Positions 167 through 20,931 of a stretch of 32,124 nt of DNA are shown here, one piece after another. Positions within the stretch are counted from its first letter, which is position 1. Every line of letters starts with the position of its first letter. The position numbers and the translations under genes are program-made. Source of the stretch: Dehalococcoidia bacterium (GTDB lineage: Bacteria; Chloroflexota; Dehalococcoidia; GIF9; UBA5629); NCBI GenBank assembly GCA_007280145.1, contig QYPU01000040.1, positions 1 to 32,124 of the forward strand, in the 5' to 3' direction. The notes beneath the pieces are model-generated. The model did no database searches and had not been told where the DNA came from. It was given only the letters and a program-made list of their open reading frames with translations.

Positions 167-1303
167 CTAAGATGCAGGCAGGTGATTCTTTGCAGTATCA
201 ATCATCGCTTTGACATTGTCAAATTTGGCATCTATGGGGCACTCACACCCGGTGCTGAGAATAAAACCCCCTCCGTCACCAACAACGTCTATTAGTTTCT
301 CGCAATATTCGGTAACATCTTCAGGTGTGCCCAAAGCAAGCTTAGACGCTGGCACATCTCCCATAATGCACATGTGGCCTTCCAATACTTCTTTTGCCCT
401 AAAGATATCGGTGGTACTATCAAGTTCACATATACACTTACCTTTAGGTAAATCTTTTAGATAGGGAAGATTCATCGTCCAGTCGGTGTCAAAGTGTAAT
501 GTGGTCGTGAGTCCCTCGGCAGCGAAGGCATCGACCATTTTCTTCAGGTAGGGAAAGCCAAACCGCTCGAAAATCTTCATCGGGTAGTAGAAACCAGAGC
601 CCCGTTCCAGGGGAAAGAAGACCCAGGGCATACCTGTAGCTTTAATATCGTTCTTGACGTTATCAATAAGGTCGTCAACCATGGCATCCATCGCTGCCTC
701 AACCTTGTCAGGCCGGCGATATAGGTCAAGCGTGAATTGAGTAAGCGACCTGCATAAAGACAGTATCATGGTGCAGCTACAGGTAGTTGCACCAAGCAGT
801 ACCGGTACCCCGCGTTCTTTCCAGGCCTTGGCATCGTCCATATATATCTTACACTGCCTTTTCTGGCTGGCATCTATCTTCTCGACAGAACGACCTGTCA
901 CCCGCGGGAGAAGCTCCTCCAAAAAACCATTCCAACCTTTGCTAATTATCGTATCGTAGTCCTCAACAACCATAATTTCCCGTTCTGCTGCTTGAATTGG
1001 ACTGTCCTCAGGGGCCCCCCTACCCGCCACATACATCGGCGTTGGCGCCGACGATATCCGCCAGCTAGAACTCGGCCAGATAAGGTCGGCTGCAATCTGC
1101 CCATCATAACCTCCCAGGGCATCAAAGGTATCAATAAAGGCCTGAATTGCTCTGTGTGGGTTCTTGTAACCTTCGCTTTGAGGCACACCTTGATACCGAA
1201 GAGGAAACTGCAACATGTAAGGAGCTACTGGAACTCTGTCAGGAATCTCAAGATTAACCGCAGCACGGATTCTTTCCTCTCGGGTCATCATCTCTTTTAT
1301 CAC
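167..1303 (-). CDS. Uroporphyrinogen decarboxylase/MtaA-fold protein, putative corrinoid-dependent methyltransferase (paralog 1)
   Basis: N-terminal MTREERI..PDRVPV, C-terminal GDV..LALGTPEDV..C..LID..G.GGGFILSTGCE. Start re-called at GTG 1303 (GGAGGTG at 1310-1316; matches the MIKE start of its paralogs). Lies downstream of a corrinoid protein gene. Confidence 0.85.
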   Translation of the reverse strand: MIKEMMTREERIRAAVNLEIPDRVPVAPYMLQFPLRYQGVPQSEGYKNPHRAIQAFIDTFDALGGYDGQIAADLIWPSSSWRISSAPTPMYVAGRGAPEDSPIQAAEREIMVVEDYDTIISKGWNGFLEELLPRVTGRSVEKIDASQKRQCKIYMDDAKAWKERGVPVLLGATTCSCTMILSLCRSLTQFTLDLYRRPDKVEAAMDAMVDDLIDNVKNDIKATGMPWVFFPLERGSGFYYPMKIFERFGFPYLKKMVDAFAAEGLTTTLHFDTDWTMNLPYLKDLPKGKCICELDSTTDIFRAKEVLEGHMCIMGDVPASKLALGTPEDVTEYCEKLIDVVGDGGGFILSTGCECPIDAKFDNVKAMIDTAKNHLPAS

Positions 1304-1349
1304 CCATCTCACCTCCTGACAAAACCCTCGCATATACCCACGCTCAGAT

Positions 1350-2489
1350 TCAACAAGCAGGCAGGTGATTCTTAACAGAATCGACCATAGCTTTTACATT
1401 CTCAAATTTGGCATCAACAGGGCACTCACACCCCGTGCTCAGGATAAAACCTCCATCTTTACCAACGACGTCTATCAGTTTCTCGCAGTATGCAGTAACA
1501 TCTTCAGGTGTGCCCAAAGCAAGCTTAGTCGCTGGCACATCTCCCATGATGCACATATGGCCTTTCAGTATCTCTTTTGCCTTGAATATGTCACTGGTAC
1601 TATCAAGCTCACATATACACTTACCTTTAGGTAAATCTTTTAGATAGGGAAGATTCATCGTCCAGTCGGTATCGAAGTGCAGCATAGGCGTGAACCCCTT
1701 GGCAACAAAAGCATCAACCATTTTCTTGAGGTAAGGGAATTCAAATCGCTCAAATATCTTCAGCGGGTAATAGAAACAAGAGCCGCGTTCCAGAGGGAAG
1801 TAAATCCATGGTAAACCTGTAAATCTCATATCATTAGTGATATTTTCAATAAGGTCATCAACCATAGCATCCATTACCGCCTCCACCTTATCAGGAATGC
1901 GATACAAGTCAAGCGTGAATTGAGTCAATGTTCTAGATAATGAGAGTATCATCAAGCAACTCATAGTACTTGCGCCGCTCAAAACGGGAACTCCTCGCTC
2001 CTTCCACCTTTCGGCATCACGCTTACGTATCGCCGCTAGCTTTTTCATGTTTGCGTCCAAGCTCTCGAGAGAACGACCTCTTAGGCGAGGGAGGAATTCC
2101 TCACAAAAACCATTCCAACCTTTGCTGATTATCTTATCATAGTCTTCAACCGTCATAAGTTCCTGCTCTGCTACCTGCAAGCTCTGGTCATCGGAAATAC
2201 GATCTCTGCCTGGCACGACATAAGGTGTTGGCGCCGCACATATCCGCCAGCTGGAAGCTGGCCAAATAAAGTCAGGCTCAATCATAGCATCAAAGCCCCC
2301 CAGGTCATCAAAGGTGTCAGTTAGTGCCTTAAACGCCTTTTCGGCATCTTTTAAACCTTCGGTGTGCTTTATACCCTGATACCGAAAAACAAACTGATAT
2401 ATCAAAGGCACTATCGGCACCCGGTCTGAAACTTCTAGGTTAACAGCAGCCCTAATCCTCTCCTCCCGCGTCATAGTTTCCTTTATCAT
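1350..2489 (-). CDS. Uroporphyrinogen decarboxylase/MtaA-fold protein, putative corrinoid-dependent methyltransferase (paralog 2)
   Basis: Same motifs as 167..1303 (DRVP, LHFDTDW, GGFILSTGCE). ATG directly abuts the stop of the corrinoid gene (TAAATG). Confidence 0.85.
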   Translation of the reverse strand: MIKETMTREERIRAAVNLEVSDRVPIVPLIYQFVFRYQGIKHTEGLKDAEKAFKALTDTFDDLGGFDAMIEPDFIWPASSWRICAAPTPYVVPGRDRISDDQSLQVAEQELMTVEDYDKIISKGWNGFCEEFLPRLRGRSLESLDANMKKLAAIRKRDAERWKERGVPVLSGASTMSCLMILSLSRTLTQFTLDLYRIPDKVEAVMDAMVDDLIENITNDMRFTGLPWIYFPLERGSCFYYPLKIFERFEFPYLKKMVDAFVAKGFTPMLHFDTDWTMNLPYLKDLPKGKCICELDSTSDIFKAKEILKGHMCIMGDVPATKLALGTPEDVTAYCEKLIDVVGKDGGFILSTGCECPVDAKFENVKAMVDSVKNHLPAC

Positions 2490-3122
2490 TTACTTCACCT
2501 CCCTGGCAAATTTCTTGCACATCTCCACACCCTCAGATGCATCATTGGTGCAAGCATCAGCCCCAACATACTCCCCAACTTGCTCAGTCATAATCCCACC
2601 ACCGACGATAATCTTGACTTTGCCTCGTAACCCAGCTTCCTCTACCCCCTTTACCACCTCCTTCATCGACTCAAACGACGGCGTCAATAAACCTGACATC
2701 CCTAAAATGGACGCCCCCGTTTCAACCAATTTGTCTATAAAAACACCCGGCGCTACATCTATTCCCAAGTCGTAGACCTCAAATCCAGCCGCTGTTAGAA
2801 GAGTCCCTGCTATGTCCTTCCCTATATTGTGTATGTCCCCCTTTACCGTCCCCAATACCATCTTACTTAACGGCTCTGCTTGCTTGCCTCCTTCTAGCAA
2901 CGGCTCTACAACTGCCATCGCCTCCTTGAATATCTCGCCCGACACAATTAGCTCGCTGAGAAAATATTCCTTGCTCTTGTACCGCTCCCCAACAATATCC
3001 ATACCCTGACGACATTCATCAACTATAGACATTGGCTCAACACCAGCATCGATTTTCTCACGCACCAGTCTCTTTGCCTCGTCCTCGTTTAATTCAGCTA
3101 TGACATCAGCCAGTTCTGACAT
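2490..3122 (-). CDS. Corrinoid (B12-binding) protein, MtaC/MtbC-like
   Basis: GTVKGDIHNIGK (DxHxxG base-off/His-on motif), GMSGLLT, IIVGGG, N-terminal cap domain (EYFLSELI). AAGGAGG SD. Confidence 0.95.
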   Translation of the reverse strand: MSELADVIAELNEDEAKRLVREKIDAGVEPMSIVDECRQGMDIVGERYKSKEYFLSELIVSGEIFKEAMAVVEPLLEGGKQAEPLSKMVLGTVKGDIHNIGKDIAGTLLTAAGFEVYDLGIDVAPGVFIDKLVETGASILGMSGLLTPSFESMKEVVKGVEEAGLRGKVKIIVGGGIMTEQVGEYVGADACTNDASEGVEMCKKFAREVK

Positions 3123-3225
3123 ACTTCCTCCTTAAAATTTTTGTAACCAAGAATGCATACACGCTGAAGAATAACCCGCCTTTCAACTCGAAGCAGCACT
3201 GCAATGGATAGTATGCTGACCCAGG

Positions 3226-3975
3226 CTACAATCCCAGGTATATCTTTCTTATGCGCTCATCGCTGAGCAGCTCTTTGCCTGTACCCTCAGCGATTATCTT
3301 GCCTTTAGACATAACATAGTTTCTCGTACTCAGGGCAAAGGCAAAGCTAATATCTTGCTCAACAAGCATCGTGTTAATTCCAAGACGTTGAATCTCTACT
3401 ACCTTCTCAAACAAGTCCTCTTTTGTCTTGGGGGCAAGTCCAGTCGACGGTTCATCAAGGCACAGGAGCTTCGGGCTGCTCATTAATGACCTCCCTATGG
3501 CAAGCATAACCCTTTCTCCGCCGGATAATGTCCCCGAGATCTGTTTTCTCCTTTCTTTCAGCACTGGAAATAGCTCAAAAACCCCCTCTAGATTTTTGTT
3601 CCTATCCTTTGGGCATGTGTACGCCCCCGCTTTCAAGTTATCCAGAACCGACAGTTCAGTAAACGGCCTCGCCCTTTCCGGGCAGACAACCAGGCCTCTT
3701 TTCATAATTTCATCCGCCGGCAGATTATCCACTCTCTCTCCATCGAATACCACTTCACCCGTGGTGGTTATTTTGCTCAACATCGCCCTCATTCCTTTCA
3801 TCATGTCCCTCTCCCACCTTGTGAGCCCAACCATAGCCCTGAGCATAGTGGTCTTCCCTGCCCCGTTTGGACCTACCACTGCAACGAACTCTCCGGCATC
3901 AATACTGAAGCTGGCTCCATTCAACACCAGTGCAGTATAGTAACGCACAGTCAAATCCCGTACTTCAAGAAGCAC
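3226..3975 (-). CDS. livF: LIV-family ABC transporter ATP-binding subunit (LivF-like)
   Basis: Walker A GPNGAGKT, LSGGE, LDEPSTGLAP, LVEQ, C-terminal YLG. Confidence 0.9.
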   Translation of the reverse strand: MLLEVRDLTVRYYTALVLNGASFSIDAGEFVAVVGPNGAGKTTMLRAMVGLTRWERDMMKGMRAMLSKITTTGEVVFDGERVDNLPADEIMKRGLVVCPERARPFTELSVLDNLKAGAYTCPKDRNKNLEGVFELFPVLKERRKQISGTLSGGERVMLAIGRSLMSSPKLLCLDEPSTGLAPKTKEDLFEKVVEIQRLGINTMLVEQDISFAFALSTRNYVMSKGKIIAEGTGKELLSDERIRKIYLGL

Positions 3976-4741
3976 CTAAAATCACCCCCTTACCCAGGTA
4001 AGCCTCTATTACCTTGTTGTCACTGGCTATCTCCTCTGGTGTGCCCTGAGCAATGATCTGGCCGAAGTTGAGCACAAGCACTCTATCAACTATCTTCATC
4101 AGGTCCATTAGCTTATGTTCCACGATAAGCATAACCATCTCTTCGGAATGCAGTCTGCCAAATCTCCCCCCTTTATGCAACCTCCTCATCGATTTCCCCA
4201 AGAGGTCGGTTTCAGCAGGGTTTAGTCCACCAAATGGCTCATCAAGTAAAAGCAGCTCAGGTTCGGTGGAAATAGCTCGAGCTATCTCCAGACGCTTTAA
4301 GTCACCATGTGACAGGACAGCAGCCCGTTCCAGCGACAGGTCGGCAATGCCAACAAACTCCAGGGCATCTCGCGCCTTCACAGCCAGTCTTTTGGTCCAC
4401 TCCCCCCTCTTTGCCTTAGTCACCATACAGGCCACCATAACATTCATGATACAAGGTAAGTTGCGAAACGGCTTTACCACCTGGAAGGTCCCTGCAATTC
4501 CCCGTTTGACAATATCGCATGACCTGTGCCGGGTGATATCCTTACCCTTGAATATTATCCTCCCTGAATCAGGCTTCAGCACCCCCATTATGAGCCGCAA
4601 TAGGGTAGTCTTCCCCGAACCATTGGGGCCTATTAGGGCAACCACTTCCCCCTGGTCTATCCGAAAACTCACATTATCGACTGCCACTAGCCCACCGAAC
4701 CGCTTGGTTAAACCTTGAACTTCAAAAAAGGCGTCGGCCAA
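3965..4741 (-). CDS. livG: LIV-family ABC transporter ATP-binding subunit (LivG-like)
   Basis: KRFGGLVAV, GPNGSGKT, TFQ, LEIARA, LLLDEP.GLN, VEH, VIEAYLG; TTG start. Confidence 0.9.
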   Translation of the reverse strand: MADAFFEVQGLTKRFGGLVAVDNVSFRIDQGEVVALIGPNGSGKTTLLRLIMGVLKPDSGRIIFKGKDITRHRSCDIVKRGIAGTFQVVKPFRNLPCIMNVMVACMVTKAKRGEWTKRLAVKARDALEFVGIADLSLERAAVLSHGDLKRLEIARAISTEPELLLLDEPFGGLNPAETDLLGKSMRRLHKGGRFGRLHSEEMVMLIVEHKLMDLMKIVDRVLVLNFGQIIAQGTPEEIASDNKVIEAYLGKGVILGAS

Positions 4742-4742
4742 T

Positions 4743-6440
4743 TTAGTCCACCTCCTCTCTTAGCTCTCTTCGTGATACCTTGCCAACATCTGTCTGTGGG
4801 ATTTCTCCCTTGAATTCCACGACCTTAGGGATTTTAAAATGGGCTATCTTACCCTCACAATATTTCATGATGTCCTCTTCGGATAATTCTCCCCTGGCAT
4901 CACTCTCAAGCACTACCACCGCTTTAACAATCTCCCCTGCCCTGGGATCCTTAACCCCGACAACCCCCACATCTTTGACCTGGGGATGCTTTTTTATAAC
5001 TTCCTCTACCTCTCGGGCAAAGACAGCATGACCTTTGTACTTAATCATGTCCCTCTTTCTATCATAGAAATAACCATAGCCTTCCTCATCCATACTTCCC
5101 AGGTCACCGGTCCTCATCCACACCTCACCATCTATGTCTACAAACCTTTCCTCATTTTCCTTGGGGCGCTTCCAATAACCCTTCATTACCTGGGGACCTC
5201 TAACAGCAATCTCACCCACTTCCCCAACGGGCAGGAATTCGTTCTTTTCGGGATGGAGAATCGCAAACATCGTGGAGGGATAAGGTACACCGAACGAGCC
5301 TAACTTGATTCTGTTATAGGGGTTGTAGGAAATTATGGCAACTGTCTCACTCTGCCCGTAACCTTCGCATAGCCTCCGGCCGGTCCGTCTTTCAAAGCCG
5401 TTAGCTGTTTCCAAAAGAAGAGCATCAGCTCCAGAAGAAACATAATGCAATTTTTTCCAATCCACCCTATCCGTCTTTTCGTAGTCCTTTAAAGCATCAT
5501 ATATGCTTGGAGCACCGACAAATGTGGTTGCTTTATATGTTTGCATATAGCCTAAGAGCTCATCAAGGTCAGTACTGGCAGTTACTATTCCGGTATATCC
5601 CCGGAGTAGTCCGTTAGTCAAGGCTATTTGCCCGGCAGCATGATACATGGGCATATAAGCTATCCCCGTCTCTTCGCCCTCGTGAAGTAGACCCCTCAGT
5701 GAGGTATTGAGTTGCAGTTCATTAGCTACATAGTTGTAATGGGTAAGCATAGCAGCCTTGGGTAGCGCAGTCGTTCCCCCGGTATATTGCAGGGTTGCTA
5801 AATCTTCCTTGGGATTGAACTCAATTTTTGGCGGGTCAGGAGGATACTTCTTGAGTAAATCTTGAAGTTGATAGAAGCCCTCCCTTTCGATGATCTCGGT
5901 AGATGGCAGTGCCATCCTCTCATAGACAGAGCTCAACACACTCTTCCCCATGAACCTCTTGAAGCGAGGCAGGTATTCTCCAATATCCGTCAGAATAACA
6001 TTCCTCAGCTTCACCCCCGCCTTCTCAACGATACCATAGAGTATGTTCAAACAGATAATGTCCTCGGCCTCGCTGTCCTCAAGTTGGTGCTTGACCTCAG
6101 GAGAAACATACATCGGGCTAATCAGGGTTAAGACGGCGCCTGCCTTGAGCGCACCGTAGTAGGCTATGGCATACTGAGGCGAGTTCAACAGAAGTATGGC
6201 AACTGTGTCCCCCTTCCTCACACCCAGGTCACACAGGGCAGTCGCAAACCTGTCTACCTGGTCCTTTAGGTCCAGGTAGCTTATTTTCCTGCCGTAGAAT
6301 ATTACGGCAGTCTTATCCTTCCACCTTGCCACCGATTCGTCAAAAAGCTCAGGCAGGGATTTCTCAGGCACCTCGACCTCAGCCGGGACTCCCTCAGGGT
6401 AGAACTTAATCCATGGTCTTTCATGGTATACCGTTTTCAT
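4743..6440 (-). CDS. Acyl-CoA ligase (FadD-like AMP-binding enzyme)
   Basis: QYTGGTTALPKA, EGYGQSE, RTGDLG, DRKRDMIK, GKVSRR. Start re-called at ATG 6440 (GGAGGT at 6448-6453). Confidence 0.92.
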   Translation of the reverse strand: MKTVYHERPWIKFYPEGVPAEVEVPEKSLPELFDESVARWKDKTAVIFYGRKISYLDLKDQVDRFATALCDLGVRKGDTVAILLLNSPQYAIAYYGALKAGAVLTLISPMYVSPEVKHQLEDSEAEDIICLNILYGIVEKAGVKLRNVILTDIGEYLPRFKRFMGKSVLSSVYERMALPSTEIIEREGFYQLQDLLKKYPPDPPKIEFNPKEDLATLQYTGGTTALPKAAMLTHYNYVANELQLNTSLRGLLHEGEETGIAYMPMYHAAGQIALTNGLLRGYTGIVTASTDLDELLGYMQTYKATTFVGAPSIYDALKDYEKTDRVDWKKLHYVSSGADALLLETANGFERRTGRRLCEGYGQSETVAIISYNPYNRIKLGSFGVPYPSTMFAILHPEKNEFLPVGEVGEIAVRGPQVMKGYWKRPKENEERFVDIDGEVWMRTGDLGSMDEEGYGYFYDRKRDMIKYKGHAVFAREVEEVIKKHPQVKDVGVVGVKDPRAGEIVKAVVVLESDARGELSEEDIMKYCEGKIAHFKIPKVVEFKGEIPQTDVGKVSRRELREEVD

Positions 6441-6546
6441 CTCTTTAACCTCCACATAAGAATGGCACACATCTCAAGCTCAATGGCCTTTATAACCCAG
6501 GCACCTTCTCTGAAAAAATGCCCAGCATGGAAACAAACGCCACCTA

Positions 6547-7617
6547 TCAATCCTTCACTGTCTCCAACTTCTTCCGCTCCGTATGCAGGTGTGCCCCGCA
6601 GGCCCTGCACTCCTGCCGGCTCATGGCATTGATTAACTTGCACCTCGGGCATTGTTTCTCAATTTTGTCTCTTGCCCACGGGACAATTCCTTCAGGCATA
6701 AATAGTATGATGAGGACCACAAGACAGGCATAGACAAACATCCGCAGCTCCGGGATGACTCGGAGCAATTCCATAACTGGATAGAGAACGAAAACACCGG
6801 TTACTGCTCCGCCGATTGTACCCATCCCTCCGAAAATCGTCCATATGATTGGGCTGAACGACCAGAGCAGGTCCAGCATCATTGGCCCGGCCACTCGCAT
6901 AACATGGACATATAAACCACCAGAAATTCCGGCAAAGAAAGCACTGACGCCGAAAGCTGCCAGCTTATACCTTGTGGTGTCGATTCCCGAACACCGTGCC
7001 GAAATCTCGTCTTCCTGAATGGCCCGAAAGGCAAGCCCCGTTCTGATAAGTGAACTTCTGGCATCGGTGAACTTCCACATTGCCAGTACAGAGGCTACCA
7101 TCACAATGAACGTGGTATAGTAGGCAGCCACCCGGCTCTGACAAAGAGCGCTCACTCCCGAGATGCCCTTCTCTCCACCAGTAAAATCAACGAAAACAAG
7201 AACGATGCCAGCGAGTATCAGGGGAAAGGTCAAGCTGACTAGAGTGAAATAGGTGCCCCTCAACCTCATAGACGGAATGGCTATGATGAATCCCGCCAGC
7301 ATTGCCACAAGCGCCCCACAGGGTATTGTTGCCCAGGGCACCCAACCAAGATCTCTGCTGAGGATAGCAGCAGTATAGGCGGCAATGGCAAACAGGGCAC
7401 CCTGTCCCATGTTGAACTGTCCGGTGAAGCCAGCAAGAACATCCCAACTCGCAGCATAGATGGCAAACACATTGACAAAGATGAGAACGAGCAGGATATA
7501 CGGCTCCTGGGTAACAAGCGGTACGAAGCACAAAAGCAGGAGACAGAAGAACGCCATCGCCCGGCCCGGGATGGCCATTATATTGCCTTGAAATGCCTTG
7601 TATAGCCCACGAATCAT
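6547..7617 (-). CDS. livM: LIV-family ABC permease (LivM-like) with C-terminal CxxC-x10-CxxC zinc ribbon
   Basis: GFTGQFNMG, RLRGTYF, TGGEKG, AIQEDE, IFGGMGT, MPEGI, then CPRCKLINAMSRQECRACG. Confidence 0.9.
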   Translation of the reverse strand: MIRGLYKAFQGNIMAIPGRAMAFFCLLLLCFVPLVTQEPYILLVLIFVNVFAIYAASWDVLAGFTGQFNMGQGALFAIAAYTAAILSRDLGWVPWATIPCGALVAMLAGFIIAIPSMRLRGTYFTLVSLTFPLILAGIVLVFVDFTGGEKGISGVSALCQSRVAAYYTTFIVMVASVLAMWKFTDARSSLIRTGLAFRAIQEDEISARCSGIDTTRYKLAAFGVSAFFAGISGGLYVHVMRVAGPMMLDLLWSFSPIIWTIFGGMGTIGGAVTGVFVLYPVMELLRVIPELRMFVYACLVVLIILFMPEGIVPWARDKIEKQCPRCKLINAMSRQECRACGAHLHTERKKLETVKD

Positions 7618-8489: not shown

Positions 8490-8507
8490 AATAGCTCCTA
8501 ACACGAA

Positions 8508-8557
8508 CAGTTGGAAGAACGCCCGCACACTAGAAGTGTGAGGCGTTCTTCCAACTG
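8508..8557 (-). promoter_or_regulatory. Long intergenic hairpin 3' of binding-protein gene (16-bp perfect stem plus 6-bp inner stem, no U-tract)
   Basis: CAGTTGGAAGAACGCC (8508-8523) / GGCGTTCTTCCAACTG (8542-8557); inner CACACT/AGTGTG. Confidence 0.75.
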
Positions 8558-8568
8558 CAATTTACAAT

Positions 8569-9909: not shown

Positions 9910-9959
9910 TTTAACCTCCTTACAATATGGAATATTTTTGCCCTTGTGAAAAACCATCT

Positions 9960-11034: not shown

Positions 11035-11039
11035 CGACC

Positions 11040-11065: not shown

Positions 11066-11068
11066 GTC

Positions 11069-11098: not shown

Positions 11099-11115
11099 TA
11101 TCTTAATTGACATAT

Positions 11116-11290: not shown

Positions 11291-11353
11291 ATCGTTTCAC
11301 TTAACATTTACTTCACTCTTTGTCAAAACCCTGACACATCTTCCCGCTCAGAT

Positions 11354-13211: not shown

Positions 13212-13234
13212 CCCTGGTTATCACACCAATATAC

Positions 13235-14029: not shown

Positions 14030-14045
14030 AGTTCATCTTATCTGG

Positions 14046-14078
14046 ATAGAGGGCTTCCGTAATCCGGAAGCCCTCTAT
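14046..14078 (-). promoter_or_regulatory. Perfect 14-bp hairpin 3' of binding-protein gene, no U-tract
   Basis: ATAGAGGGCTTCCG (14046-14059) TAATC CGGAAGCCCTCTAT (14065-14078), 8 nt past the stop. Confidence 0.75.
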
Positions 14079-14086
14079 ATCCTAAC

Positions 14087-15361
14087 TTACAGCTTCCAGA
14101 AACTGGGGTCTTGTGCTTCCTCAGGCCAGGGTGGCATCTCCTGCCACAGCTTCAGAATCTCGAGCCCAAAATCCGGGGTGGTCTTTACGATGATGTTGGC
14201 ACGAGGCCCGCCGTGCTGCTCAGTTGACCAGGGCAGAGAGCCAATCAACCCCTCGGCAGTATATCCCTTCATCTTGTGCTCCATAATCCACTTAATGTTA
14301 TCTCCAGTAAGCCCATCGTAGCCATACTTGTCAATTGTCTTCCCAAGTATGTCATTTACCAGCATTGATCCGGCATAATTAATTATGCGAATCCAGTCTA
14401 GTGGCGGCGCATCCGGGCGGTTAGTCTCGTGGAGTTGATTAATCAGTCCTATCACCTCCACCTCGTCCGCCATCTGCAACAGGGCGCATGGGCTATGGCT
14501 CATAAGACCCGTCGTCGCCTCAGGGTCCAGCTGGCGGAAGCTCATCATCATCGTTATGAAGATGTCTACGAGCTGCGTTGAGTCTGTCAGGCCGGCTGCA
14601 TATGCCGTCTTCTGGAATATCAGCTGCGGGGCGCCGGTTAATGGCATCAGCACATAGTCGCAGTTGGCATTCTTCAGGTTAGTTACCTGTGAGGTAACAT
14701 CCATTGCCGACATGGTCATCCACTCTTCAGCAACAATAGGCCAGTTCAATTCATTCTCCAGCATCCACTTAATTGGTTTGATGGTACTTTTTGAGAAGGA
14801 TGCATCCAGACCCATTATGCCGATTCTGGGCGGTTCATCCCCTTTCCAATTGTCCTTAATCCAGGTTAGACTACAGCGGTACATGTCAGCATAGTGTGGC
14901 ATATAACCAAACATGAACGAGTCAGGTGTGTGGGGAAGCAGCACCGCATACTCAGTTGGTCCTGAGCATGGCATGTGATATCTGCTAGCTAGAGGCTTGA
15001 CGACCGGCTGATAGTTGGCGCAAGCACACGAGATATAGTGCACTTTATCCTGGTTGACCAGCTTCTCGAAACCTGATGCCGCCAGGTCATTATCATATTT
15101 AGCATCAACAACGATAAGTTCGATTTGATGACCACGGATTCCACCAAGCTCCTCGTTCACATATTTCGTCCAGTCCTCCATAGCTTCCAACCCAGGAACA
15201 GACGAAGCAGCGATTGGCCCGGTCAGGTCAGTGAGAAGGCCAATCTTTATTACCCCCTCTTGAGGCCCTGCTGGTTCCGCCTTACCACAACCTGATAGAG
15301 GCAGTGCCACCAGCAAAACCACCATCAACAAAAACACACTTATTTTCCCAATTTTAGACAT
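14087..15361 (-). CDS. LIV-family ABC substrate-binding lipoprotein (module B)
   Basis: Lipobox LSGC, IKIGLLTDLTGP, VNEELGGIRG, VDAKYD; AAGGAGG SD. Confidence 0.88.
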   Translation of the reverse strand: MSKIGKISVFLLMVVLLVALPLSGCGKAEPAGPQEGVIKIGLLTDLTGPIAASSVPGLEAMEDWTKYVNEELGGIRGHQIELIVVDAKYDNDLAASGFEKLVNQDKVHYISCACANYQPVVKPLASRYHMPCSGPTEYAVLLPHTPDSFMFGYMPHYADMYRCSLTWIKDNWKGDEPPRIGIMGLDASFSKSTIKPIKWMLENELNWPIVAEEWMTMSAMDVTSQVTNLKNANCDYVLMPLTGAPQLIFQKTAYAAGLTDSTQLVDIFITMMMSFRQLDPEATTGLMSHSPCALLQMADEVEVIGLINQLHETNRPDAPPLDWIRIINYAGSMLVNDILGKTIDKYGYDGLTGDNIKWIMEHKMKGYTAEGLIGSLPWSTEQHGGPRANIIVKTTPDFGLEILKLWQEMPPWPEEAQDPSFWKL

Positions 15362-15412
15362 TTCTCCTCCTTTTTCTTAAACTCTTAAGTAAGTATCTTG
15401 CTTCCATAATCT

Positions 15413-15435
15413 CTATCACATAGACATCACCTCCT
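15413..15435 (-). promoter_or_regulatory. Orphan strong Shine-Dalgarno with start-stop minigene upstream of binding-protein gene
   Basis: AGGAGGTG (15435-15428) ATGTCT ATG TGA TAG (15421-15413). Confidence 0.5.
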
Positions 15436-15439
15436 AAGC

Positions 15440-16489
15440 TTAATACGAAAATGGCCACAAGCGGTAGTAGGCCTTAAAAATTTGCCACCGGTGCGCCAGT
15501 CCTCTGGGCTCAAAAGTTAAAAATAAAATAATCACCAACCCAAAAATAACCAGCATTAGCGGAGCCAGCAGGCTGCCAGCACCGGGGAAAATCGTAGACA
15601 ATGAAGAAAGAAACATGGCAAGGCCATTATTCAAAGCTGAAACGAATATCACCCCGAAGAAAACTCCAGTTATAGTGCCCAGACCTCCTATGATAATGTA
15701 TCCCAGATACCAGAAGGATTGAACCAGCGTGTAGCTGTCCGGTGTAATTACCCCGCGGGCATGAGCCGCCAGCGCTCCTCCGATACCAGCAAAAGCACAG
15801 CCTATAAAGAAGGCCAGCAGCTTATAGGCCGTCAAATGAATACCCATCACTTCAGCAGCTAAGTCATTGTCACGTATAGCAATAAAGGCCCGCCCCACAT
15901 TGGTCCTGACTATATTCTTAGCCACGTAGGTAGCTATAAGCAAAGCTATGAAGACAATGTAGAAGTAGCTCTGTGTGGTAGCAAACTCAATCCCCCCCAG
16001 CTTCGGAGCCGGCGCTGACATGCCAAAAGAGCCGCCGGTAACACTCGTCCAGTGTATTATAACGTACATAATGATAAACTGCGCCGCCAGTGTAGATATG
16101 ATGAGATAAAACCCCTTAAGCCTGATGGAAGTAAGTCCTACTAGCAATCCAACCAGTCCAGCAGCGATACCAGCAACAGGCACAGCAATCCAAAATGACA
16201 GCCCCGATTGTGAAACCAGGAGAGCTGAGCTATAAGCACCAACCGCTACAAATGCGGAATGGCCTACAGAGAGCTGTCCGCAGTATCCCGTCAGGATTTG
16301 TATTCCCAGTGCGGCAATGATAATGCTCATAGTCGTGATAATTACGGTAAGCATATAGGTACCAGTAAACAGGGGAATGCAAAGACCGAAAACGATGGCT
16401 GCAGCTAGCAATATCCATTGCAGCCGGGTCCTAACAATGGCCATATCCTGCTCGTAGGTCTCATTGAAGGTTCGGCAAGGCAGATGCAC
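15440..16489 (-). CDS. livM: LIV-family ABC permease (LivM-like)
   Basis: GYCGQLSVGH, RLKGFYL, GRAFIAIRDND, IIGGLGT, FEPRGLA. Confidence 0.92.
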   Translation of the reverse strand: MHLPCRTFNETYEQDMAIVRTRLQWILLAAAIVFGLCIPLFTGTYMLTVIITTMSIIIAALGIQILTGYCGQLSVGHSAFVAVGAYSSALLVSQSGLSFWIAVPVAGIAAGLVGLLVGLTSIRLKGFYLIISTLAAQFIIMYVIIHWTSVTGGSFGMSAPAPKLGGIEFATTQSYFYIVFIALLIATYVAKNIVRTNVGRAFIAIRDNDLAAEVMGIHLTAYKLLAFFIGCAFAGIGGALAAHARGVITPDSYTLVQSFWYLGYIIIGGLGTITGVFFGVIFVSALNNGLAMFLSSLSTIFPGAGSLLAPLMLVIFGLVIILFLTFEPRGLAHRWQIFKAYYRLWPFSY

Positions 16490-16492
16490 TTC

Positions 16493-17374
16493 TTATATCC
16501 TCTCTATTCTCTTTAGTCCAAAGATTCCGTAGGGCACAATCAGCAGTAGCACCAGCAAAATAACATACGGGATTACATCCTCAATACCAATTAACCAGGA
16601 ACCTAAATAAGCTGCGCCGAAGTGTTCGACTACACCCAGAATAATGCCCCCAATGAGAGCCCCAGGCACTGATTCCAAACCGCCGAGGATAACAGCCGGC
16701 AAGACTTTGAATCCGAAGTCATCAAGCGAATAGCCTACCGATAATATGGTGCCCACTATTATGCCGCCGACTGCAGCAGTTAGACTGGCAATAGCCCACG
16801 ACATTCCAAATACCCGCTTGACGCTTATGCCCACTGATTGGGCTACCTGTTGATTATCCTGGGTGGCTCTCATGGCAACGCCGATGCTGGTATACCTGAA
16901 AAACAGAATGAAGACAGCGAACAGGATGGCCGCTGCTACGAGAGACAAAGCGAAAATTGGCAACACATTTGCCCCCAATATATTGATTGGTTCCGCAGAG
17001 AGATAGGACGGAAGCGATTTGCTATAGACACCCCAGGCAATCAACACCACCCCTCGGAGCATGAGGTAGAGACCTATAGTAATCATAAGTATTGCCAGGT
17101 GGGACTGGCCAATCATACGGCGCAGAAATACAAACTCAATCAGCAACCCTATCGCAAAGGCAACTACCAGCGTTAAAATAATTGACACATAAAATGGCAA
17201 TCCAACCGTGATGCTTAAAAAATAACAAATATAGGCGCCAAGACACAGCAAGCTTCCCTGAGCTAGATTGAAAACGCCCGTGGCCTTGTATATGAGGACA
17301 AAGCCGAGAGCAACTATGCTGTACACAGCGCCAACCGCTATTCCAATAACCAGATGCTCTAATATAACACTCAT
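16493..17374 (-). CDS. livH: LIV-family ABC permease (LivH-like)
   Basis: ALGFVLIYKATGVFNLAQG, GVAMRA, ILGGLES, PYGIFG..IERI; ATGA overlap with the synthetase. Confidence 0.92.
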   Translation of the reverse strand: MSVILEHLVIGIAVGAVYSIVALGFVLIYKATGVFNLAQGSLLCLGAYICYFLSITVGLPFYVSIILTLVVAFAIGLLIEFVFLRRMIGQSHLAILMITIGLYLMLRGVVLIAWGVYSKSLPSYLSAEPINILGANVLPIFALSLVAAAILFAVFILFFRYTSIGVAMRATQDNQQVAQSVGISVKRVFGMSWAIASLTAAVGGIIVGTILSVGYSLDDFGFKVLPAVILGGLESVPGALIGGIILGVVEHFGAAYLGSWLIGIEDVIPYVILLVLLLIVPYGIFGLKRIERI

Positions 17375-19314
17375 CTGTCTTCGTCCTCCACTGATGCAAT
17401 TTGAACCGCGGTTGTTATTGTAGCCGTTCTACCATCCCGGTAGGTAACCTTAGCCTCGGCAGTATATTCCATTTTGTCTCCGTACAGGGCTTCTATCATG
17501 TCCAGGTAACGCTGGCTAACTTCCTTTCGCCTCAACTTCCTCGTTCTGGTTAACTCAGCGTCATCGGCATCCAGCTCCTTGTGCAGTAAAGCAAACCTCC
17601 TTATCCTCTGCTTCTCAGGTAAACGCCTATTTATACCCACCACATCTTTTCTGATAAGGTCATAGACTTCCGGTTTCTGGGACAGGTCAACAAATGTGGT
17701 ATAGGGGATACGGTGCACCTCAGCCCATTTCCCCAGGTTGGGAAAATCAATACTAATTAGAGCACCGACAAACTCCTCATCATCACCAGTGATAACAGCA
17801 TCCCTGATATAAGGCGAGAATTTAAGCTTATTCTCGATATATGAAGGCGAGAAACCAGTCCCATCACTTAGAGTTCCGAGGTCAGCCAGCCTGTCAATAC
17901 ACACTAGATGACCCCGTTCCGTAATAAAGCCAGCATCACTGGTATGTACCCAACCCTGCTCATCAATAAGTTTTGCCGTAGCCTCAGGATTGTTATAGTA
18001 GCCAAGCATCTTCTGCGGGCCTCTCTCGAGAATTTCGCCATCTCCGGATATCCTCAGCTCGGTATAAGGCGTAGCCACCCCAGAGGTTTCAGAATCGATA
18101 TCACCTTTCATATGCATAGCTGTCGGTGTGCACTCAATCATTCCATACATCATTCGGGCATCAATCCCCAGAGCAACAAAGAAATCGAAAACTTCAGAAG
18201 CCATGGAAGCACCACCAATAAGCATAACCCTATTCCCTGAATAGGCCAGCCAGTCCTTGATTGGCCTAAATACTAGAAGATAACCGAGGGCATAGACCGC
18301 CCGCCAAAACAAATTCACCTTCTGATTATTGCGTTTCAGTTGAGCTATCTTGTAGCCAACAGGCATAAATAGCTGATAGACGAATCTCTTCAAAAAGCTG
18401 GCATCGGCAATCTTTACCTGCACGAAAGAGACCTCATTCTCCAGCAATCTTGGAACTGTTGATGCTTTCGTTGGCCCTACTTCTCTCACATCTACCGCCA
18501 CGGTTTCTGGCTCCTCGGGGAAATTCACCGTAGCGCCACCTTTTATGAATGCTGGTATAAGATATAAAAACTCAGCACCATAGGCGAGGGGAAAAGCCGA
18601 AACGAACTCATCACTCTCTCCAGTAAGTGGTAGCGTATCCCAACAGCGGCTCGCTGCTAGAACGCTCCGTGAGCAGTGCACTATCCCCTTCGGTAAACCT
18701 GTAGTTCCTGACGAATAGGTTAACATGACAGGGTCTTCTTCATCACTATTCTCAATAATCTGCTCTAACAGGCCAGGATGTTCCTTCTCATATTCTCTAC
18801 CAAGCTCCACCACTTTATCAAAACGCATCAGAATAGGGTCATCATAGAATCTGAGCCCCTTCGGGTCCCAATATATTACCTTACTTATTGCCGGCACTTC
18901 CTCAATGATAGGCTTTTGCTCCTTGCCCTCCCTATCCCTGTACGGAAAGATAAGCTTGTCAACCTGCTCCTGGTCCTCAACAACCACAAAGGTGCTGCCA
19001 GACTGAGTGATGACATATTTTATTTCCTGGGGGCCAGAATCCTGGTAGGCACCGGTTGGGACACCTCCACAGCATATGGCAGCAAACTCGGCGAAATACC
19101 ATTCAGGCTCATTATCACCTATTATGGTAATCCTATCACCAGACTTAAACCCCAGGCTCATCAGCCCAAGAGCAAAATATTTGGACTGCTCCCACCACTC
19201 CTTCCATGTATAAGGCTGCCATACTCCAAAGTTCTTATAGCGCAGGGCTACCTTCTTGCTCCCATATTTATCACAGGTCTGCTTAAACAGCTTGGATATC
19301 GTATCCCCTGGCAT
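17371..19314 (-). CDS. Long-chain-type acyl-CoA synthetase (AMP-binding) embedded in the ABC transporter
   Basis: YSSGTTGLPKG, YGMIE, GWVHTSDAG, SPSYIENKLKFSPYI, ELTRTRKLRR. Confidence 0.9.
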   Translation of the reverse strand: MPGDTISKLFKQTCDKYGSKKVALRYKNFGVWQPYTWKEWWEQSKYFALGLMSLGFKSGDRITIIGDNEPEWYFAEFAAICCGGVPTGAYQDSGPQEIKYVITQSGSTFVVVEDQEQVDKLIFPYRDREGKEQKPIIEEVPAISKVIYWDPKGLRFYDDPILMRFDKVVELGREYEKEHPGLLEQIIENSDEEDPVMLTYSSGTTGLPKGIVHCSRSVLAASRCWDTLPLTGESDEFVSAFPLAYGAEFLYLIPAFIKGGATVNFPEEPETVAVDVREVGPTKASTVPRLLENEVSFVQVKIADASFLKRFVYQLFMPVGYKIAQLKRNNQKVNLFWRAVYALGYLLVFRPIKDWLAYSGNRVMLIGGASMASEVFDFFVALGIDARMMYGMIECTPTAMHMKGDIDSETSGVATPYTELRISGDGEILERGPQKMLGYYNNPEATAKLIDEQGWVHTSDAGFITERGHLVCIDRLADLGTLSDGTGFSPSYIENKLKFSPYIRDAVITGDDEEFVGALISIDFPNLGKWAEVHRIPYTTFVDLSQKPEVYDLIRKDVVGINRRLPEKQRIRRFALLHKELDADDAELTRTRKLRRKEVSQRYLDMIEALYGDKMEYTAEAKVTYRDGRTATITTAVQIASVEDEDR

Positions 19315-19340
19315 TACTTAAACTCCCACCACTATGTGGC

Positions 19341-20132
19341 TCATGCTGCCGCTTTACCTAAATAAGCTTTAATAACATCAGGGTTGCCCTTGACCTCACT
19401 CGGCTTGCCCTCAGCAATCTTCCGCCCAAAATCAAGAACAACCACCCTGTCCGATATATCCATCACTACGCCCATGTCATGTTCAATAAGGACTATGGTG
19501 TTGACTCGCTCCTCATATATATCCAGAATGAACCTGGCCATATCCTCTTTCTCTTCCAGGTTCATTCCGGCCATAGGCTCATCCATTAAAAGCACCCTGG
19601 GCCCCAGGGCCAACGCCCTGCCTAGCTCGACTCTCTTGCGCAACCCATAAGGAACGGTACCCACGACCTGCTTTCTTATCGCCTCTATCTCCAGGAAATC
19701 AATAATATCTTCTATCGCCCTTCGCTGTTCAACTTCCTCCCGGTGGGTTCTACCCAAGTAAACACCACCCAGAATAGAACCAACAAGCCCGCCCGTCATA
19801 TAAAAATGCCTGCCAGCAAGCAGGTTATCCTGGACGCTCAATCCAGTAAACAACTCGATATTCTGAAACGTCCTGGCAATACCAAGCCCGGCAATTTTGT
19901 GGCTCTGCAGACGGGTAATATCCCGACCCTCAAAATAAATATTACCCTGCTGAGGGCGATAGAATCCGTTTATACAATTAAGAATACAGGTCTTACCAGC
20001 ACCATTGGGACCAATTATTGAGAGTATCTCACCTTCCCTGACATCCAGGCTAACATCAATCAGGGCATGAACCCCCCCAAAGCTAAGATGAAGGTGCTCC
20101 AGTTTTAACTTAGCTTTATCTTCTGAAACCAC
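19341..20132 (-). CDS. livG: LIV-family ABC ATP-binding subunit (LivG-like)
   Basis: FGGVHAL, GPNGAGKT, RTFQN, PYGLRKRVELGRAL, DEPMAGMN, IEHD, AYLG. Confidence 0.92.
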   Translation of the reverse strand: MVSEDKAKLKLEHLHLSFGGVHALIDVSLDVREGEILSIIGPNGAGKTCILNCINGFYRPQQGNIYFEGRDITRLQSHKIAGLGIARTFQNIELFTGLSVQDNLLAGRHFYMTGGLVGSILGGVYLGRTHREEVEQRRAIEDIIDFLEIEAIRKQVVGTVPYGLRKRVELGRALALGPRVLLMDEPMAGMNLEEKEDMARFILDIYEERVNTIVLIEHDMGVVMDISDRVVVLDFGRKIAEGKPSEVKGNPDVIKAYLGKAAA

Positions 20133-20172: not shown

Positions 20173-20853
20173 CTATTTAACACCTACGCTGGGATGTCTT
20201 TCTGTATCCTTACGGCTCCCGGCGGCTGCTCTTGTGTCTACCAGTATCGCCTTCAGGATAGATTCAGTCTGTTCTCTTATGTACTCCTCCAACGTGCAGC
20301 GTTTTCTCAAAAACCAGCGCCTGATTGCCCACATGTGGCCGAGAACAATTATGTTATGCGCCACCACCGTAGGATTATCAATCTTGAATTCCCCGGCTTC
20401 AACCCCCCACCTCAACAACTTCTCACAAGCAGCTACATCACGGGCTGCAGCATCAAGAACACGTCGTCGAGCATTTGAATCCAGGCCCTTTGTTTCTTGA
20501 TATGTAAAGAGGCACAGATTCTGGCCATCATCGATCAATCGGTAGTACATCTTAATAAACTCACGAAGGGCTTCTGTCGGGCTGATATCACCCAATCTAC
20601 TGGAGAAGCCCTCAACCACTTCTGATAGCCTGGATAACCCATCGTTGATAAACAAGTAGAGAATATCTTCTTTTGAACCAACATAGTGGTACAGGGCACC
20701 GATACTCATATTACAGGCTGCAGCCATTTCACGCATATTTGTTCGGTCATATCCCTTTTCCACAAACACCTTGGCCGCACCCTGAATTATCTGCATTCTG
20801 CGCAACTTGACTAAGGTCTCATCATGGCTGTAAGTGCGCATATCATCATTCAT
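20173..20853 (-). CDS. TetR/AcrR-family transcriptional regulator (module B)
   Basis: HTH FVEKGYDRTNMREMAAACNMSIGALYHYVGSKEDIL; HMWAIRRW. Start re-called at ATG 20853 because GTG 20895 lies inside the operator palindrome. Confidence 0.92.
   Translation of the reverse strand: MNDDMRTYSHDETLVKLRRMQIIQGAAKVFVEKGYDRTNMREMAAACNMSIGALYHYVGSKEDILYLFINDGLSRLSEVVEGFSSRLGDISPTEALREFIKMYYRLIDDGQNLCLFTYQETKGLDSNARRRVLDAAARDVAACEKLLRWGVEAGEFKIDNPTVVAHNIIVLGHMWAIRRWFLRKRCTLEEYIREQTESILKAILVDTRAAAGSRKDTERHPSVGVK
20270..20450. repeat. 181-bp direct repeat, copy 2 (copy 1 at 10063..10243)
   Basis: Manual ungapped alignment at offset 10207. Confidence 0.92.
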
Positions 20854-20879
20854 ATGAAGCTCTTGCCCCCTGGTTAGTG

Positions 20880-20899
20880 TAGAGCGAACATTCACTCTA
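20880..20899. promoter_or_regulatory. Putative TetR operator palindrome
   Basis: TAGAGCGAA-CA-TTCACTCTA (8/9 symmetric), overlapping the predicted transcription start. Confidence 0.7.
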
Positions 20900-20902
20900 T
20901 GT

Positions 20903-20931
20903 AGAATACTAAAACCTTAAAGTCTTGTCAA
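20903..20931 (-). promoter_or_regulatory. Sigma70-type promoter of module B
   Basis: TTGACA (20931-20926), 17 nt, TATTCT (20908-20903) on the minus strand. Confidence 0.7.

Follow-up and report, generated by a model that had tools for sequence, protein, structure and literature searches.

The locus and its corrinoid methyltransferase set

We have analysed a window of 32,124 nucleotides from a Dehalococcoidia bacterium, the whole of one 32-kb contig (QYPU01000040.1, here C63) of a 1.23-Mb assembly (GCA_007280145.1, 68% complete), in which URO-D-fold genes, predicted to encode corrinoid-dependent methyltransferases, stand directly beside genes for LIV-type ABC importers and acid:CoA ligases. 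Every long open reading frame (ORF) in the ORF listing of the window lies on the minus strand (Table 1). A first-pass annotation of this DNA had described two adjacent operons with the same functional inventory, a different gene order and distinct transporter and ligase subtypes, each led by a TetR regulator and carrying a LIV-type importer, a ligase and a corrinoid protein (CP), and the ORF listing and Pfam assignments agree with that description. Each operon (A and B) holds a full LIV/HAAT-type importer, made up of a Peripla_BP_6 substrate-binding protein (SBP), two BPD_transp_2 permeases and two ATPases, one of them with a BCA_ABC_TP_C tail. The transporter proteins of A and B are 29-38% identical (LivF 38%, LivG 33%, LivM 29%, LivH 34%) and the two ligases show only patchy similarity of 20-30%; judged by these identities, the importers and ligases of the two operons are different subtypes. 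Spacers within the operons range from -11 to 103 nt. The annotation had also placed near-identical CP genes against a URO-D gene in both operons. The abutment is exact, with a gap of 0 nt between CP stop and UroD start in A and B alike, but "near-identical" is generous for proteins that are 88.6% identical (80-95% at the DNA level over 60-nt blocks), and operon A terminates in two URO-D genes, UroD1 and UroD2. These two are 72% identical to each other and UroD_B is 54% identical to either. The ratio of nonsynonymous to synonymous divergence (dN/dS) is 0.086 for the CP pair (dS 0.67) and 0.17 for UroD1/UroD2, and by this measure the CP pair is under purifying selection. The probable true start of UroD2 is at 1303, the family profile match spanning 173-1303.

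Table 1. Features of the window and their positions
Feature	Position	Strand	Basis or remark
11-subunit nuo operon (NuoA, B, C, D, H, I, J, K, L, M, N)	31946-21803	-	Pfam
ECH1, crotonase family	20971..21813	-	Directly after nuoN, 75 nt upstream of TetR_B; Pfam ECH_1 198.5 bits
TetR_B, regulator heading operon B	20173-20895	-	TetR_N 50.6 bits, TetR_C_24 41.7 bits
Ligase-importer cassette B, whole	13235..20132	-	ABC_tran + BCA_ABC_TP_C, AMP-binding + AMP-binding_C_3, BPD_transp_2 x2, Peripla_BP_6
LivG, operon B	19341-20132	-	Pfam
Ligase B, 647 aa	17371-19314	-	Pfam AMP-binding + AMP-binding_C_3
LivH, operon B	16493-17374	-	Pfam
LivM, operon B	15440-16489	-	Pfam
SBP, operon B (SBP_B)	14087-15361	-	Pfam Peripla_BP_6
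LivF, operon B (LivF_B)	13235-14029	-	Pfam
CP_B, corrinoid protein	12515-13147	-	B12-binding_2 57.1 bits, B12-binding 75.6 bits
UroD_B, URO-D-fold, methyltransferase I type, B clade	11354-12514	-	Pfam URO-D 79.2 bits
Intergenic region between operons B and A, 319 nt	11035..11353	-	
TetR_A	10372-11034	-	TetR family (Pfam); 40% identical to TetR_B
121-aa ORF, relic of TetR_B 3' half	10005-10370	-	
Ligase-importer cassette A, whole	3226..9975	-	Pfam
SBP, operon A	8569-9975	-	Pfam
LivH, operon A	7617-8528	-	Pfam
LivM, operon A	6547-7617	-	Pfam
Ligase A, 575 aa, FadD-like	4743-6470	-	Pfam
LivG, operon A	3965-4741	-	Pfam
LivF, operon A	3226-3975	-	Pfam
CP_A, corrinoid protein, diverged copy of CP_B	2490-3122	-	Pfam B12-binding_2 + B12-binding (PF02607 + PF02310)
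UroD1, URO-D-fold, methyltransferase I type, A clade	1350-2489	-	Pfam 86.5 bits; within extra segment
UroD2, URO-D-fold, methyltransferase I type, A clade	167-1333	-	Pfam 96.2 bits
Spacer towards RACo gene (body on contig C90)	1..166	-	

The three URO-D proteins (79.2-96.2 bits against the PF01208 cut-off of 23.9) belong to an uncharacterised clade of methyltransferase I (MT I) proteins. A profile of this family reached a single PDB entry at E up to 0.001, that of CdmB (E 3.3e-28), over profile positions 10-373 and thus near full length, and CdmB (9rui) was also the only entry reached at this threshold by single proteins (UroD1, E 6.3e-23; UroD_B, E 5.6e-20). According to the available part of the CdmB report, CdmB is the URO-D-superfamily MT I of Acetobacterium dehalogenans, and its close relatives MtvB, OdmB, VdmB and MtoB demethylate methoxylated aromatics (PMC13222342). 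The AlphaFold2 model of UroD1 is a TIM barrel (pLDDT 84.6, pTM 0.87), for which Foldseek, in a library older than the CdmB entries, returned MtaA first (4ay8, 4ay7; TM 0.70-0.79) and then uroporphyrinogen decarboxylases (0.62-0.73). The fold is therefore that of the methanogen methylcobamide:thiol methyltransferases MtaA, MtbA, MtsA and MtpA, but the family profile did not reach MtaA in the PDB at E up to 1, and the MtaA/MtbA family models gave 26-69 bits against cut-offs of 235-600. Membership of these families was rejected case by case: the MtaA/CmuA family TIGR01463 (47.8-55.9 bits against 235.4), PRK06252 (56.9-69.1 against 244), the MtbA equivalog (34-40 against 600) and the uroporphyrinogen decarboxylase HemE (TIGR01464; UroD2 25.7 and UroD1 30.9 bits against 302.95, UroD_B being unmatched at the threshold used). 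Orthologues of UroD_B are 84% (L003) and 96% (L100) identical to it.

Both CPs consist of the cap and Rossmann B12 domains (PF02607 + PF02310), and the closest solved relative, in a search run with CP_A, is a Desulfitobacterium hafniense protein (4jgi, E 9e-44). In the 12 sequences of alignment A4, the residues D96, H98, G101, S143, L145, G174 and G175 of CP_B are invariant; they form the DxHxxG...SxL...GG pattern that we take to be the corrinoid-protein signature. The pairing of the corrinoid and URO-D genes as a methyltransferase system, put forward in the first-pass annotation, is supported by the CdmB match, by the adjacency of the CP and by the predicted complex of UroD1 with CP_A. This complex scored 0.83, a value attained by 116 of 157 solved complexes and by 2 of 215 mismatched pairs, with 0.00 for the best control, at least 97% contact agreement between runs and a pLDDT of at least 88 for the partner; the DxHxxG loop of the CP is among the modelled contacts and faces the mouth of the barrel. 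The model thus supports binding between MT I and CP. In four other loci (L041, L061, L068, L076) a URO-D-fold MT I and a complete corrinoid protein are fused in one protein of 608-641 aa; the records concerned are titled Actinomycetota, Desulfobacterales or Deltaproteobacteria. Taken together, homology and modelling support the view that the URO-D genes encode MT I-type corrinoid-dependent methyltransferases paired with the adjacent CP.

The residues around the presumed active site suggest how the family may differ from its solved relative. MtaA-like URO-D proteins that are encoded next to family members bear H-x-C and G-C motifs, and in alignment A2 two residues that are invariant in the family, H271 and C354, fall on the His and on the second Cys of this H-x-C...G-C arrangement, so that two of the three positions of the MtaA-type motif are kept; the first Cys is replaced by a three-residue insertion containing the invariant D273. 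We consider a His/Asp/Cys metal site probable on this alignment. CdmB shares an H311-x-C313 motif with the family, but it lacks H271, D273 and C354 (Ser/Gln/Phe at the equivalent positions) as well as the invariant E234-R235-G236. In the part of the report available, CdmB acts on gaseous haloalkanes and neither needs nor binds zinc; the metal is present, by contrast, in the O-demethylases for veratrole and vanillate (PMC13222342). The possibility that our proteins are Cdm-like halomethane dehalogenases has to be considered, since CdmB alone among solved structures matches them significantly in sequence (E 6e-23 to 3e-28). We hold it to be barely credible: the similarity is distant, the retained H271/D273/C354 argue against a halomethane and in favour of an ether oxygen or a thioether sulfur as the leaving group, either of which has to be activated, a gaseous substrate has no use for an ABC importer or a CoA ligase, and the close homologues of CdmB are, as far as the available text of the report goes, found mainly in Bacillota and Asgardarchaeota (PMC13222342). 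A haloalkane methyltransferase of the CdmB type was accordingly set aside.

The remaining parts of such a system lie on another contig of the assembly, C90. It carries a RACo activase (9902-11608; RACo_C_ter 318.6 bits, Raco_middle 184.3 bits), the only one in the assembly, whose N-terminus is lost at the contig end; a second crotonase, ECH2 (9062-9853), which comes next after RACo; and, convergent with these two, an AcsE-like methyltransferase II (MT II; 8140-8934; PF00809 84.6 bits, NF005719 (PRK07535) 342.9 bits against a cut-off of 259) and a 236-aa protein (7343-8053) that the ESM Atlas places with MetH-activation-domain proteins (score 0.97). Relatives of this last protein, 230-245 aa long and without a Pfam match above threshold, accompany RACo and MT II in 12 of 79 genome loci, and the homologue in L013 has a weak PF02965 match. 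The metagenome contig L100 is 92.9% identical at the DNA level to window positions 18119-11291, continues with UroD2 and then matches C90 11609-1989 at 93.9%; it is colinear from window position 3 to C90 position 11609, leaving an unassembled gap of ~211 nt. RACo also comes next after the UroD2 orthologue in L002 and L003 (76-81% identity), as it does in L100. Because L100 is colinear over both contigs and L002 and L003 show the same synteny, C90 adjoins the start of the window, and a full set of MT I, CP, MT II and activase is therefore present in one locus. These are the four parts of the aryl O-demethylases (Odm/Vdm of Acetobacterium dehalogenans, MtvABC of Moorella thermoacetica, MtoABCD of Methermicoccus/Archaeoglobus), which are described, in the available part of the source, as a URO-D-superfamily MT I, a small His-on CP, an MT II forming methyltetrahydrofolate and an ATP-dependent activase (PMC13222342). 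The locus differs from them in its distant, uncharacterised MT I clade and in its ties to LIV importers with built-in ligases, to crotonases and to FadR-like TetR regulators.

A separate set lies on contig C102 (L084; 2601-5761), where an MttB-family methyltransferase (507 aa; 452.5 bits on the trimethylamine model, under its cut-off of 525), an MT II (Pterin_bind) and a third corrinoid protein stand in a row; this is probably a quaternary-amine-type methyltransferase system. In the window itself, the nuo operon upstream of operon B lacks NuoE/F/G genes by Pfam.

Strain variation and the origin of operon A

The comparison with L100 also bears on how operon A came to lie in the window. In L100, UroD_B is followed by a 46-nt spacer and then directly by UroD2, and operon A is wholly absent at ~93% DNA identity; UroD2 likewise comes straight after UroD_B in L001, L003, L037, L046 and L101-L103. 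Colinearity between the window and L100 extends through the spacer and 17 nt into UroD2 and stops at ~11291, the left edge of the extra segment; the same spacer recurs in front of the UroD2 of the window. Since L100 and remoter relatives run from UroD_B straight to UroD2, operon A is most likely a strain-variable insertion of ~10 kb, one gain here being preferred to repeated loss elsewhere by parsimony alone over L001, L003, L037, L046 and L100-L103. The inserted cassette has a history of its own: parts of cassette A are found in four of the six relatives' loci inspected (L093, L094, L096, L097; ligase 59-66% identity, other parts 28-75%), its orthologues are arranged as two convergent units, and none of the six loci has a CP or UroD gene beside them.

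The other components of operon A resemble its neighbours. CP_A is nearer to CP_B (88.6%) than either is to the orthologues in L001, L003 and L037 (78-81%). UroD1 is a mosaic: the first 120 nt are slightly closer to UroD_B, and the 3' end shares 85-90% DNA identity with UroD2. The 121-aa ORF matches TetR_B at 76% over 85 aa and contains a sharply bounded patch of 190 nt (~10060-10250 against 20267-20457) at 92-98% DNA identity. A recent duplication of CP and UroD in situ, after the split from L100, was set aside, since a dS of 0.67 for the CP pair against ~93% DNA identity to L100 makes the pair older than that split. Most likely, as far as can be read from sequence, recombination placed an existing ligase-importer cassette between UroD_B and UroD2, along with diverged CP and UroD copies and the 190-nt relic of TetR_B, and operon A would most simply have been gained by recombination among paralogous URO-D genes. 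The suggestion of the first-pass annotation that the same pairing had arisen twice, in two independent assemblies, does not fit these data: the CP and UroD1 of operon A are diverged copies of their neighbours, cassette A existed beforehand, and operon A is missing from L100. In a weaker sense, that of an accessory module added most simply by recombination, the term "twice-assembled" still applies.

Assembled contigs from RNA libraries add a third form of the locus; we note that this evidence consists of contigs among those listed, that DNA carry-over is possible and that a contig is no proof of a single transcript. Such contigs cover the locus over window 1-20000 in all four lake-water metatranscriptome runs compared (X10-X13). 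In three of them (X10, X11, X12), contigs with 23-26 differences from the window join position 191 to 11379 and omit 11,187 nt, which we read as a co-occurring strain with UroD_B alone and no operon A, UroD1 or UroD2. The locus therefore occurs in forms with one, two and three MT I genes. Sampled words of operon A were present at 97-99% in nine DNA runs labelled freshwater or lake water, some of them perhaps the source, and at 68-91% in eight lake-water metatranscriptome runs. Cassette A is represented by single contigs of 6.7-7.0 kb in X10, X11 and X13 and by three pieces in X12; the long contigs stop at 3164, 3233 and 3174, and one X12 piece enters CP_A by only 21 nt. For operon B, an X12 contig crosses from LivF_B into CP_B by 36 nt, and an X13 contig of a variant strain covers SBP_B to UroD_B. 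Simple scans, which are little informative for Chloroflexota, found no minus-strand terminator in either LivF-CP gap.

Upstream of cassette A, the end of one RNA-library contig falls at 10161, and two others, to which adaptor letters are attached, stop at 10008. A promoter-like site (10195-10167) lies inside the TetR_B-derived patch, and retention of the relic may be due to a promoter of cassette A within it. A perfect palindrome, TGTCAAT-N6-ATTGACA (11093-11112), overlaps, at its -35 hexamer, the best promoter-like site upstream of TetR_A (11098-11069; 10/12 matches) and is a candidate TetR operator. A comparison of the upstream regions of the two TetR genes turned up no common operator-like word of at least 10 nt. 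TetR_A and TetR_B weakly resemble the Bacillus-type acyl-CoA-sensing FadR (NF053878; 57.7 and 59 bits, respectively, against a cut-off of 200).

Linkage to ligase-importer cassettes and acyl-CoA enzymes

The search of gene neighbourhoods for URO-D, B12-binding, AMP-binding and LIV genes that the first-pass annotation had proposed finds the linkage again in other genomes and metagenomes, in at least six arrangements. We compared the best 79 genome and the best 77 metagenome loci around relatives of the URO-D family, all of them nearest to one query, with ORFs labelled by BLAST against the proteins of the window and C90. CP genes adjoin family members in 55/79 genome and 49/77 metagenome loci. 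Cassettes with a ligase of the B type are found in 10/79 and 10/77, RACo neighbours in 14/79 and 5/77, and MT II neighbours in 8/79 and 6/77. When only loci of 12 kb or more are counted, a cassette accompanies the family in 9 of 35 from genomes and 8 of 26 from metagenomes (17/61), and in these 35 genome loci RACo and MT II occur four times each.

In each locus inspected in detail, the cassette immediately adjoins the CP/UroD unit. The order LivF>CP>UroD is that of window operon B and its kin; other loci have UroD>LivG (L015, L043), LivF>UroD>CP (L149, L154), a reordered cassette>UroD>CP (L160), ECH2-UroD-CP convergent with LivF (L029, L040, L047, L071, L175) or a cassette divergent from a UroD-CP fusion (L061). 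These arrangements stand on separate branches of the UroD tree and come from Chloroflexota and Desulfobacterota-type records. The gene order of cassette B is kept at 68-97% identity in L003, L037, L046, L100, L102, L103, L117, L133 and L134. As side observations, cobalamin salvage genes (FecCD-type permease, CobQ, CobT, CobS, CobU) lie directly upstream of CP-UroD in L043 (1157-7139), and genes for CobW-family GTPases directly follow CP in Desulfobacterales-type loci (L029 2596-3534; L145 11880-12818). The family as a whole is patchy, present in 9 of 151 sampled genomes of the class and in 31 of 77 genomes and 9 of 25 genera of the taxonomic family. Its profile matches 394 of 1.84 billion cluster representatives (50% identity) at E up to 1e-30; with the limit relaxed to 0.001, the number rises to 4344.

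Enzymes of acyl-CoA metabolism recur in the same neighbourhoods. ECH1, whose true start is likely ~14 codons inside the ORF, has PRK05809 as its best NCBIfam model (215 bits, under the cut-off of 394) and keeps its position in L003, L037, L046 and L134 (79-88% identity); the metagenome locus L134 also repeats the order nuoN-ECH1-TetR. ECH2 reaches 250.6 bits on the model of the PRK08259 crotonase family (NF006108, function unknown), a little short of the cut-off of 273, which is exceeded by the crotonases encoded immediately before UroD in L047 (419.5 bits) and L029 (308.9 bits); crotonases of this type adjoin UroD or RACo in both phyla. An acyl-CoA dehydrogenase (ACAD) with EtfAB is found in L045, L047 and L145, with a divergent set in Desulfobacterales-type loci, where the best model for the ACAD is the acryloyl-CoA reductase AcrC (394.8 bits, under the cut-off of 640). 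In L002 (3959-7381), RACo is followed by a second methyltransferase set, in which a MaoC-like hydratase and then a CP stand between two URO-D proteins, the first of them of canonical length, and L146 has an ACAD, a thiolase, a ChsH2-like protein and MaoC downstream of UroD and TetR. Of the 77 metagenome loci, 25 have at least one CoA-related neighbour, as do 14 of the 26 that are at least 12 kb long. Elsewhere in the assembly, contig C119 (L099; 7963-18082) carries a ligase B-type cassette followed by a canonical crotonase, the large subunit of a methylmalonyl-CoA-mutase-family enzyme and a B12-binding subunit of 143 aa. Here, as in the window, a ligase-importer cassette precedes a B12-dependent acyl-CoA enzyme, which makes two such instances in the assembly. 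In the genome of the window, such cassettes evidently act as front ends of acyl-CoA pathways.

Based on these results, we favour, on balance and with modest confidence, the reading that the locus is an accessory catabolic island, in which a methylated carboxylic acid would be imported, activated with CoA and demethylated to tetrahydrofolate by the four-part corrinoid system, with the crotonases working on the acyl-CoA. A number of observations tell against it. Since the loci were collected as the best matches of a single query, with close kin among them and probably some loci in both collections (L046 and L102/L103 show the same identities), their counts overstate independence. The ligase cassette is absent from 44 of the 61 long loci, of which L122 has an MFS transporter and others have no transporter nearby. 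Ligase B-type cassettes are abundant, with six in the 1.23-Mb assembly, and mere proximity is therefore not rare; they also adjoin unrelated acyl-CoA enzymes, such as the crotonase and mutase on C119. Neither crotonase of the locus has both canonical catalytic Glu residues, ECH1 lacking the first (GG-x-E-L) and ECH2 the second, at the positions in alignment A3 that we take to be catalytic from the enoyl-CoA hydratase motif; homologues of ECH2 have Asp (Dehalococcoidia) or Cys (Desulfobacterales-type) at the second position, and the C119 crotonase has both Glu. Chemistry of the hydroxycinnamoyl-CoA hydratase/lyase (HCHL) type finds no support in ECH2 (99.4 bits against 276 for NF006588), and the HCHL model is not among the 25 best NCBIfam models of ECH1. 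Both ligases are generic FadD/4CL-like proteins, their solved matches being FadD and 4-coumarate and feruloyl ligases. Both SBPs match solved binding proteins weakly (best E 8e-13, to an entry without a named ligand, and several others at ~1e-5); the best solved match of SBP_B is PDB 8TG1, for which the literature search found only an unrelated paper, and the R. palustris-type entries that it matches at E ~1e-5 are presumably linked to lignin-derived aromatics. The substrate is thus not readable from the sequence. Finally, acetyl-CoA synthase (CdhC), methylenetetrahydrofolate reductase and formyltetrahydrofolate synthetase were not found in the assembly, which at 68% completeness is no evidence of absence; the reductase and the synthase (CdhC) were both found in five of five relatives carrying the system.

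Several of these points would be expected if the genes were adjacent without sharing a pathway and the corrinoid system demethylated a small free donor, such as a neutral methoxy-aromatic, methanol or methanethiol, that needs neither importer nor ligase. The six cassettes, the C119 neighbourhood, the long loci without a cassette and the dispensability of operon A in close relatives all fit such an arrangement. We nevertheless regard it as unlikely, because the cassette flanks the methyltransferase genes directly in all these arrangements, on separate UroD branches and in two phyla; because, in the genome loci of at least 12 kb, nine cassettes are at least as frequent as the canonical partners (four RACo and four MT II); and because other acyl-CoA enzymes recur, MaoC even within a methyltransferase set.

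Proposed mechanism, possible substrate and significance

What the data show is the gene inventory, the family assignments, the recurrent linkage, the differences in structure between strains and the occurrence in RNA libraries; from these we infer, for the catabolic island, the following sequence of steps, along with the direction of methyl flow and the substrate. The acid would be taken up by the LIV-type ABC importers, whose two binding proteins may correspond to two substrates or substrate ranges, and would be turned into a CoA thioester by the ligase borne on the cassette. One of the three URO-D-fold MT I paralogues would then dock its barrel mouth on the cobalamin face of the CP, the probable His/Asp/Cys metal site would activate the leaving group, and Co(I) would receive the methyl group. 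The AcsE-like MT II of C90 would hand the methyl group to tetrahydrofolate and so to the Wood-Ljungdahl/C1 pathway, with RACo re-reducing any oxidised corrinoid. The two non-canonical crotonases, ECH1 and ECH2, would process the acyl-CoA skeleton, and the FadR-like TetR repressors would govern expression. Whether MT I acts before or after activation matters for this scheme; supposing that the island reading is right, action on the CoA ester and not on the free acid appears to us possible, though the less probable of the two options.

The most likely candidate for the substrate is a methoxylated, lignin- or humic-derived aromatic or phenylpropanoid acid. We favour such acids because the only solved MT I relative belongs to the O-demethylase branch, because the carriers live in lake water and because genes of the side-chain beta-oxidation type lie nearby. 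One alternative would be an S-methyl acid such as 3-methylmercaptopropionate, present as its CoA ester, from which the methyl group would be drawn either at the thioether or from methanethiol released by a DmdBCD-like route of ACAD and crotonase. The Desulfobacterales-type loci do unite a ligase cassette, an AcrC-like ACAD, EtfAB, ECH2, UroD and CP; His, Asp and Cys occupy the thiol-activating ligand positions of MtaA-like proteins, and some carrier records are marine by title. Against this stand the O-demethylase/CdmB branch of the only solved sequence relative, the low scores on the MtaA/MtbA models and the lake-water habitat of the population in the window, acids derived from dimethylsulfoniopropionate being expected to be scarce in lake water. 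We judge an S-methyl substrate to be rather improbable. The resemblance of the fold to MtaA and, more remotely, to MetE, in the model, together with the possible thiol-activating metal site and with the joint occurrence of MT II, CP and the MetH-activation-like protein on C90 and in the 12 genome loci mentioned above, could also be explained if the methyl group flowed the other way, in a split MetH-like set that methylates a thiol or an acid from methyltetrahydrofolate. A housekeeping synthase of this kind seems very improbable to us, given the patchy distribution of the family and a gene copy number that varies among strains from one to three, and given importers and catabolic acyl-CoA enzymes that suit catabolism.

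In comparison with known systems, the parts of the proposed island are familiar, and it is the wiring, the MT I clade and the modularity at strain level that are undescribed in the literature searched. Acetogens, a few methanogens and Archaeoglobus are known to demethylate by corrinoid-dependent systems, which act on free methyl ethers, amines, thiols or halomethanes. The cou cluster of Rhodopseudomonas palustris, which serves a plant-derived aromatic acid, likewise joins a LIV-type importer (CouPSTU), an acid:CoA ligase (CouB), a crotonase-family enzyme (the hydratase/lyase CouA) and a repressor (CouR) in one locus; in contrast to the window, it has no corrinoid system, and its regulator is of the MarR and not the TetR type. 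The view of the first-pass annotation that no characterised system has this composition stands, none having been found in the literature searched, which also held no report of importer or ligase wiring in aryl O-demethylase systems; the available parts of two further papers (PMC5736913, PMC8318568) contain nothing bearing on this composition. In Archaeoglobus fulgidus grown on methoxyphenol, genes for fatty-acid activation, beta-oxidation and branched-chain ABC transport were induced, which the authors, in the available part of their report, ascribe to mixotrophy (PMC8359953).

A bolder hypothesis, which we advance as a speculation and consider unlikely, would be that the MT I clade demethylates the acyl-CoA thioesters produced by the importer-linked ligases and not the free acids, with the PRK08259-type crotonase ECH2 as a dedicated partner for the demethylated acyl-CoA. 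This would be a widespread and so far unrecognised route that supplies the Dehalococcoidia and Desulfobacterota of anoxic lakes and sediments with methyl groups of methoxylated (or methylthio) acids, and its importer, ligase and MT I modules would be swapped between strains by recombination of paralogous URO-D genes. The forms with one, two and three MT I genes among near-identical strains do point to module exchange at this locus. More generally, a large and uncharacterised MT I clade is present in uncultured Dehalococcoidia and Desulfobacterota-type genomes, where it is repeatedly joined to ligase-importers and acyl-CoA enzymes. If this link is functional, the locus would provide candidate genes for turning over methoxylated (or methylthio) acids without oxygen in lakes, peat and sediments, and a case in which a coupling of B12 chemistry to thioester metabolism could be tested.

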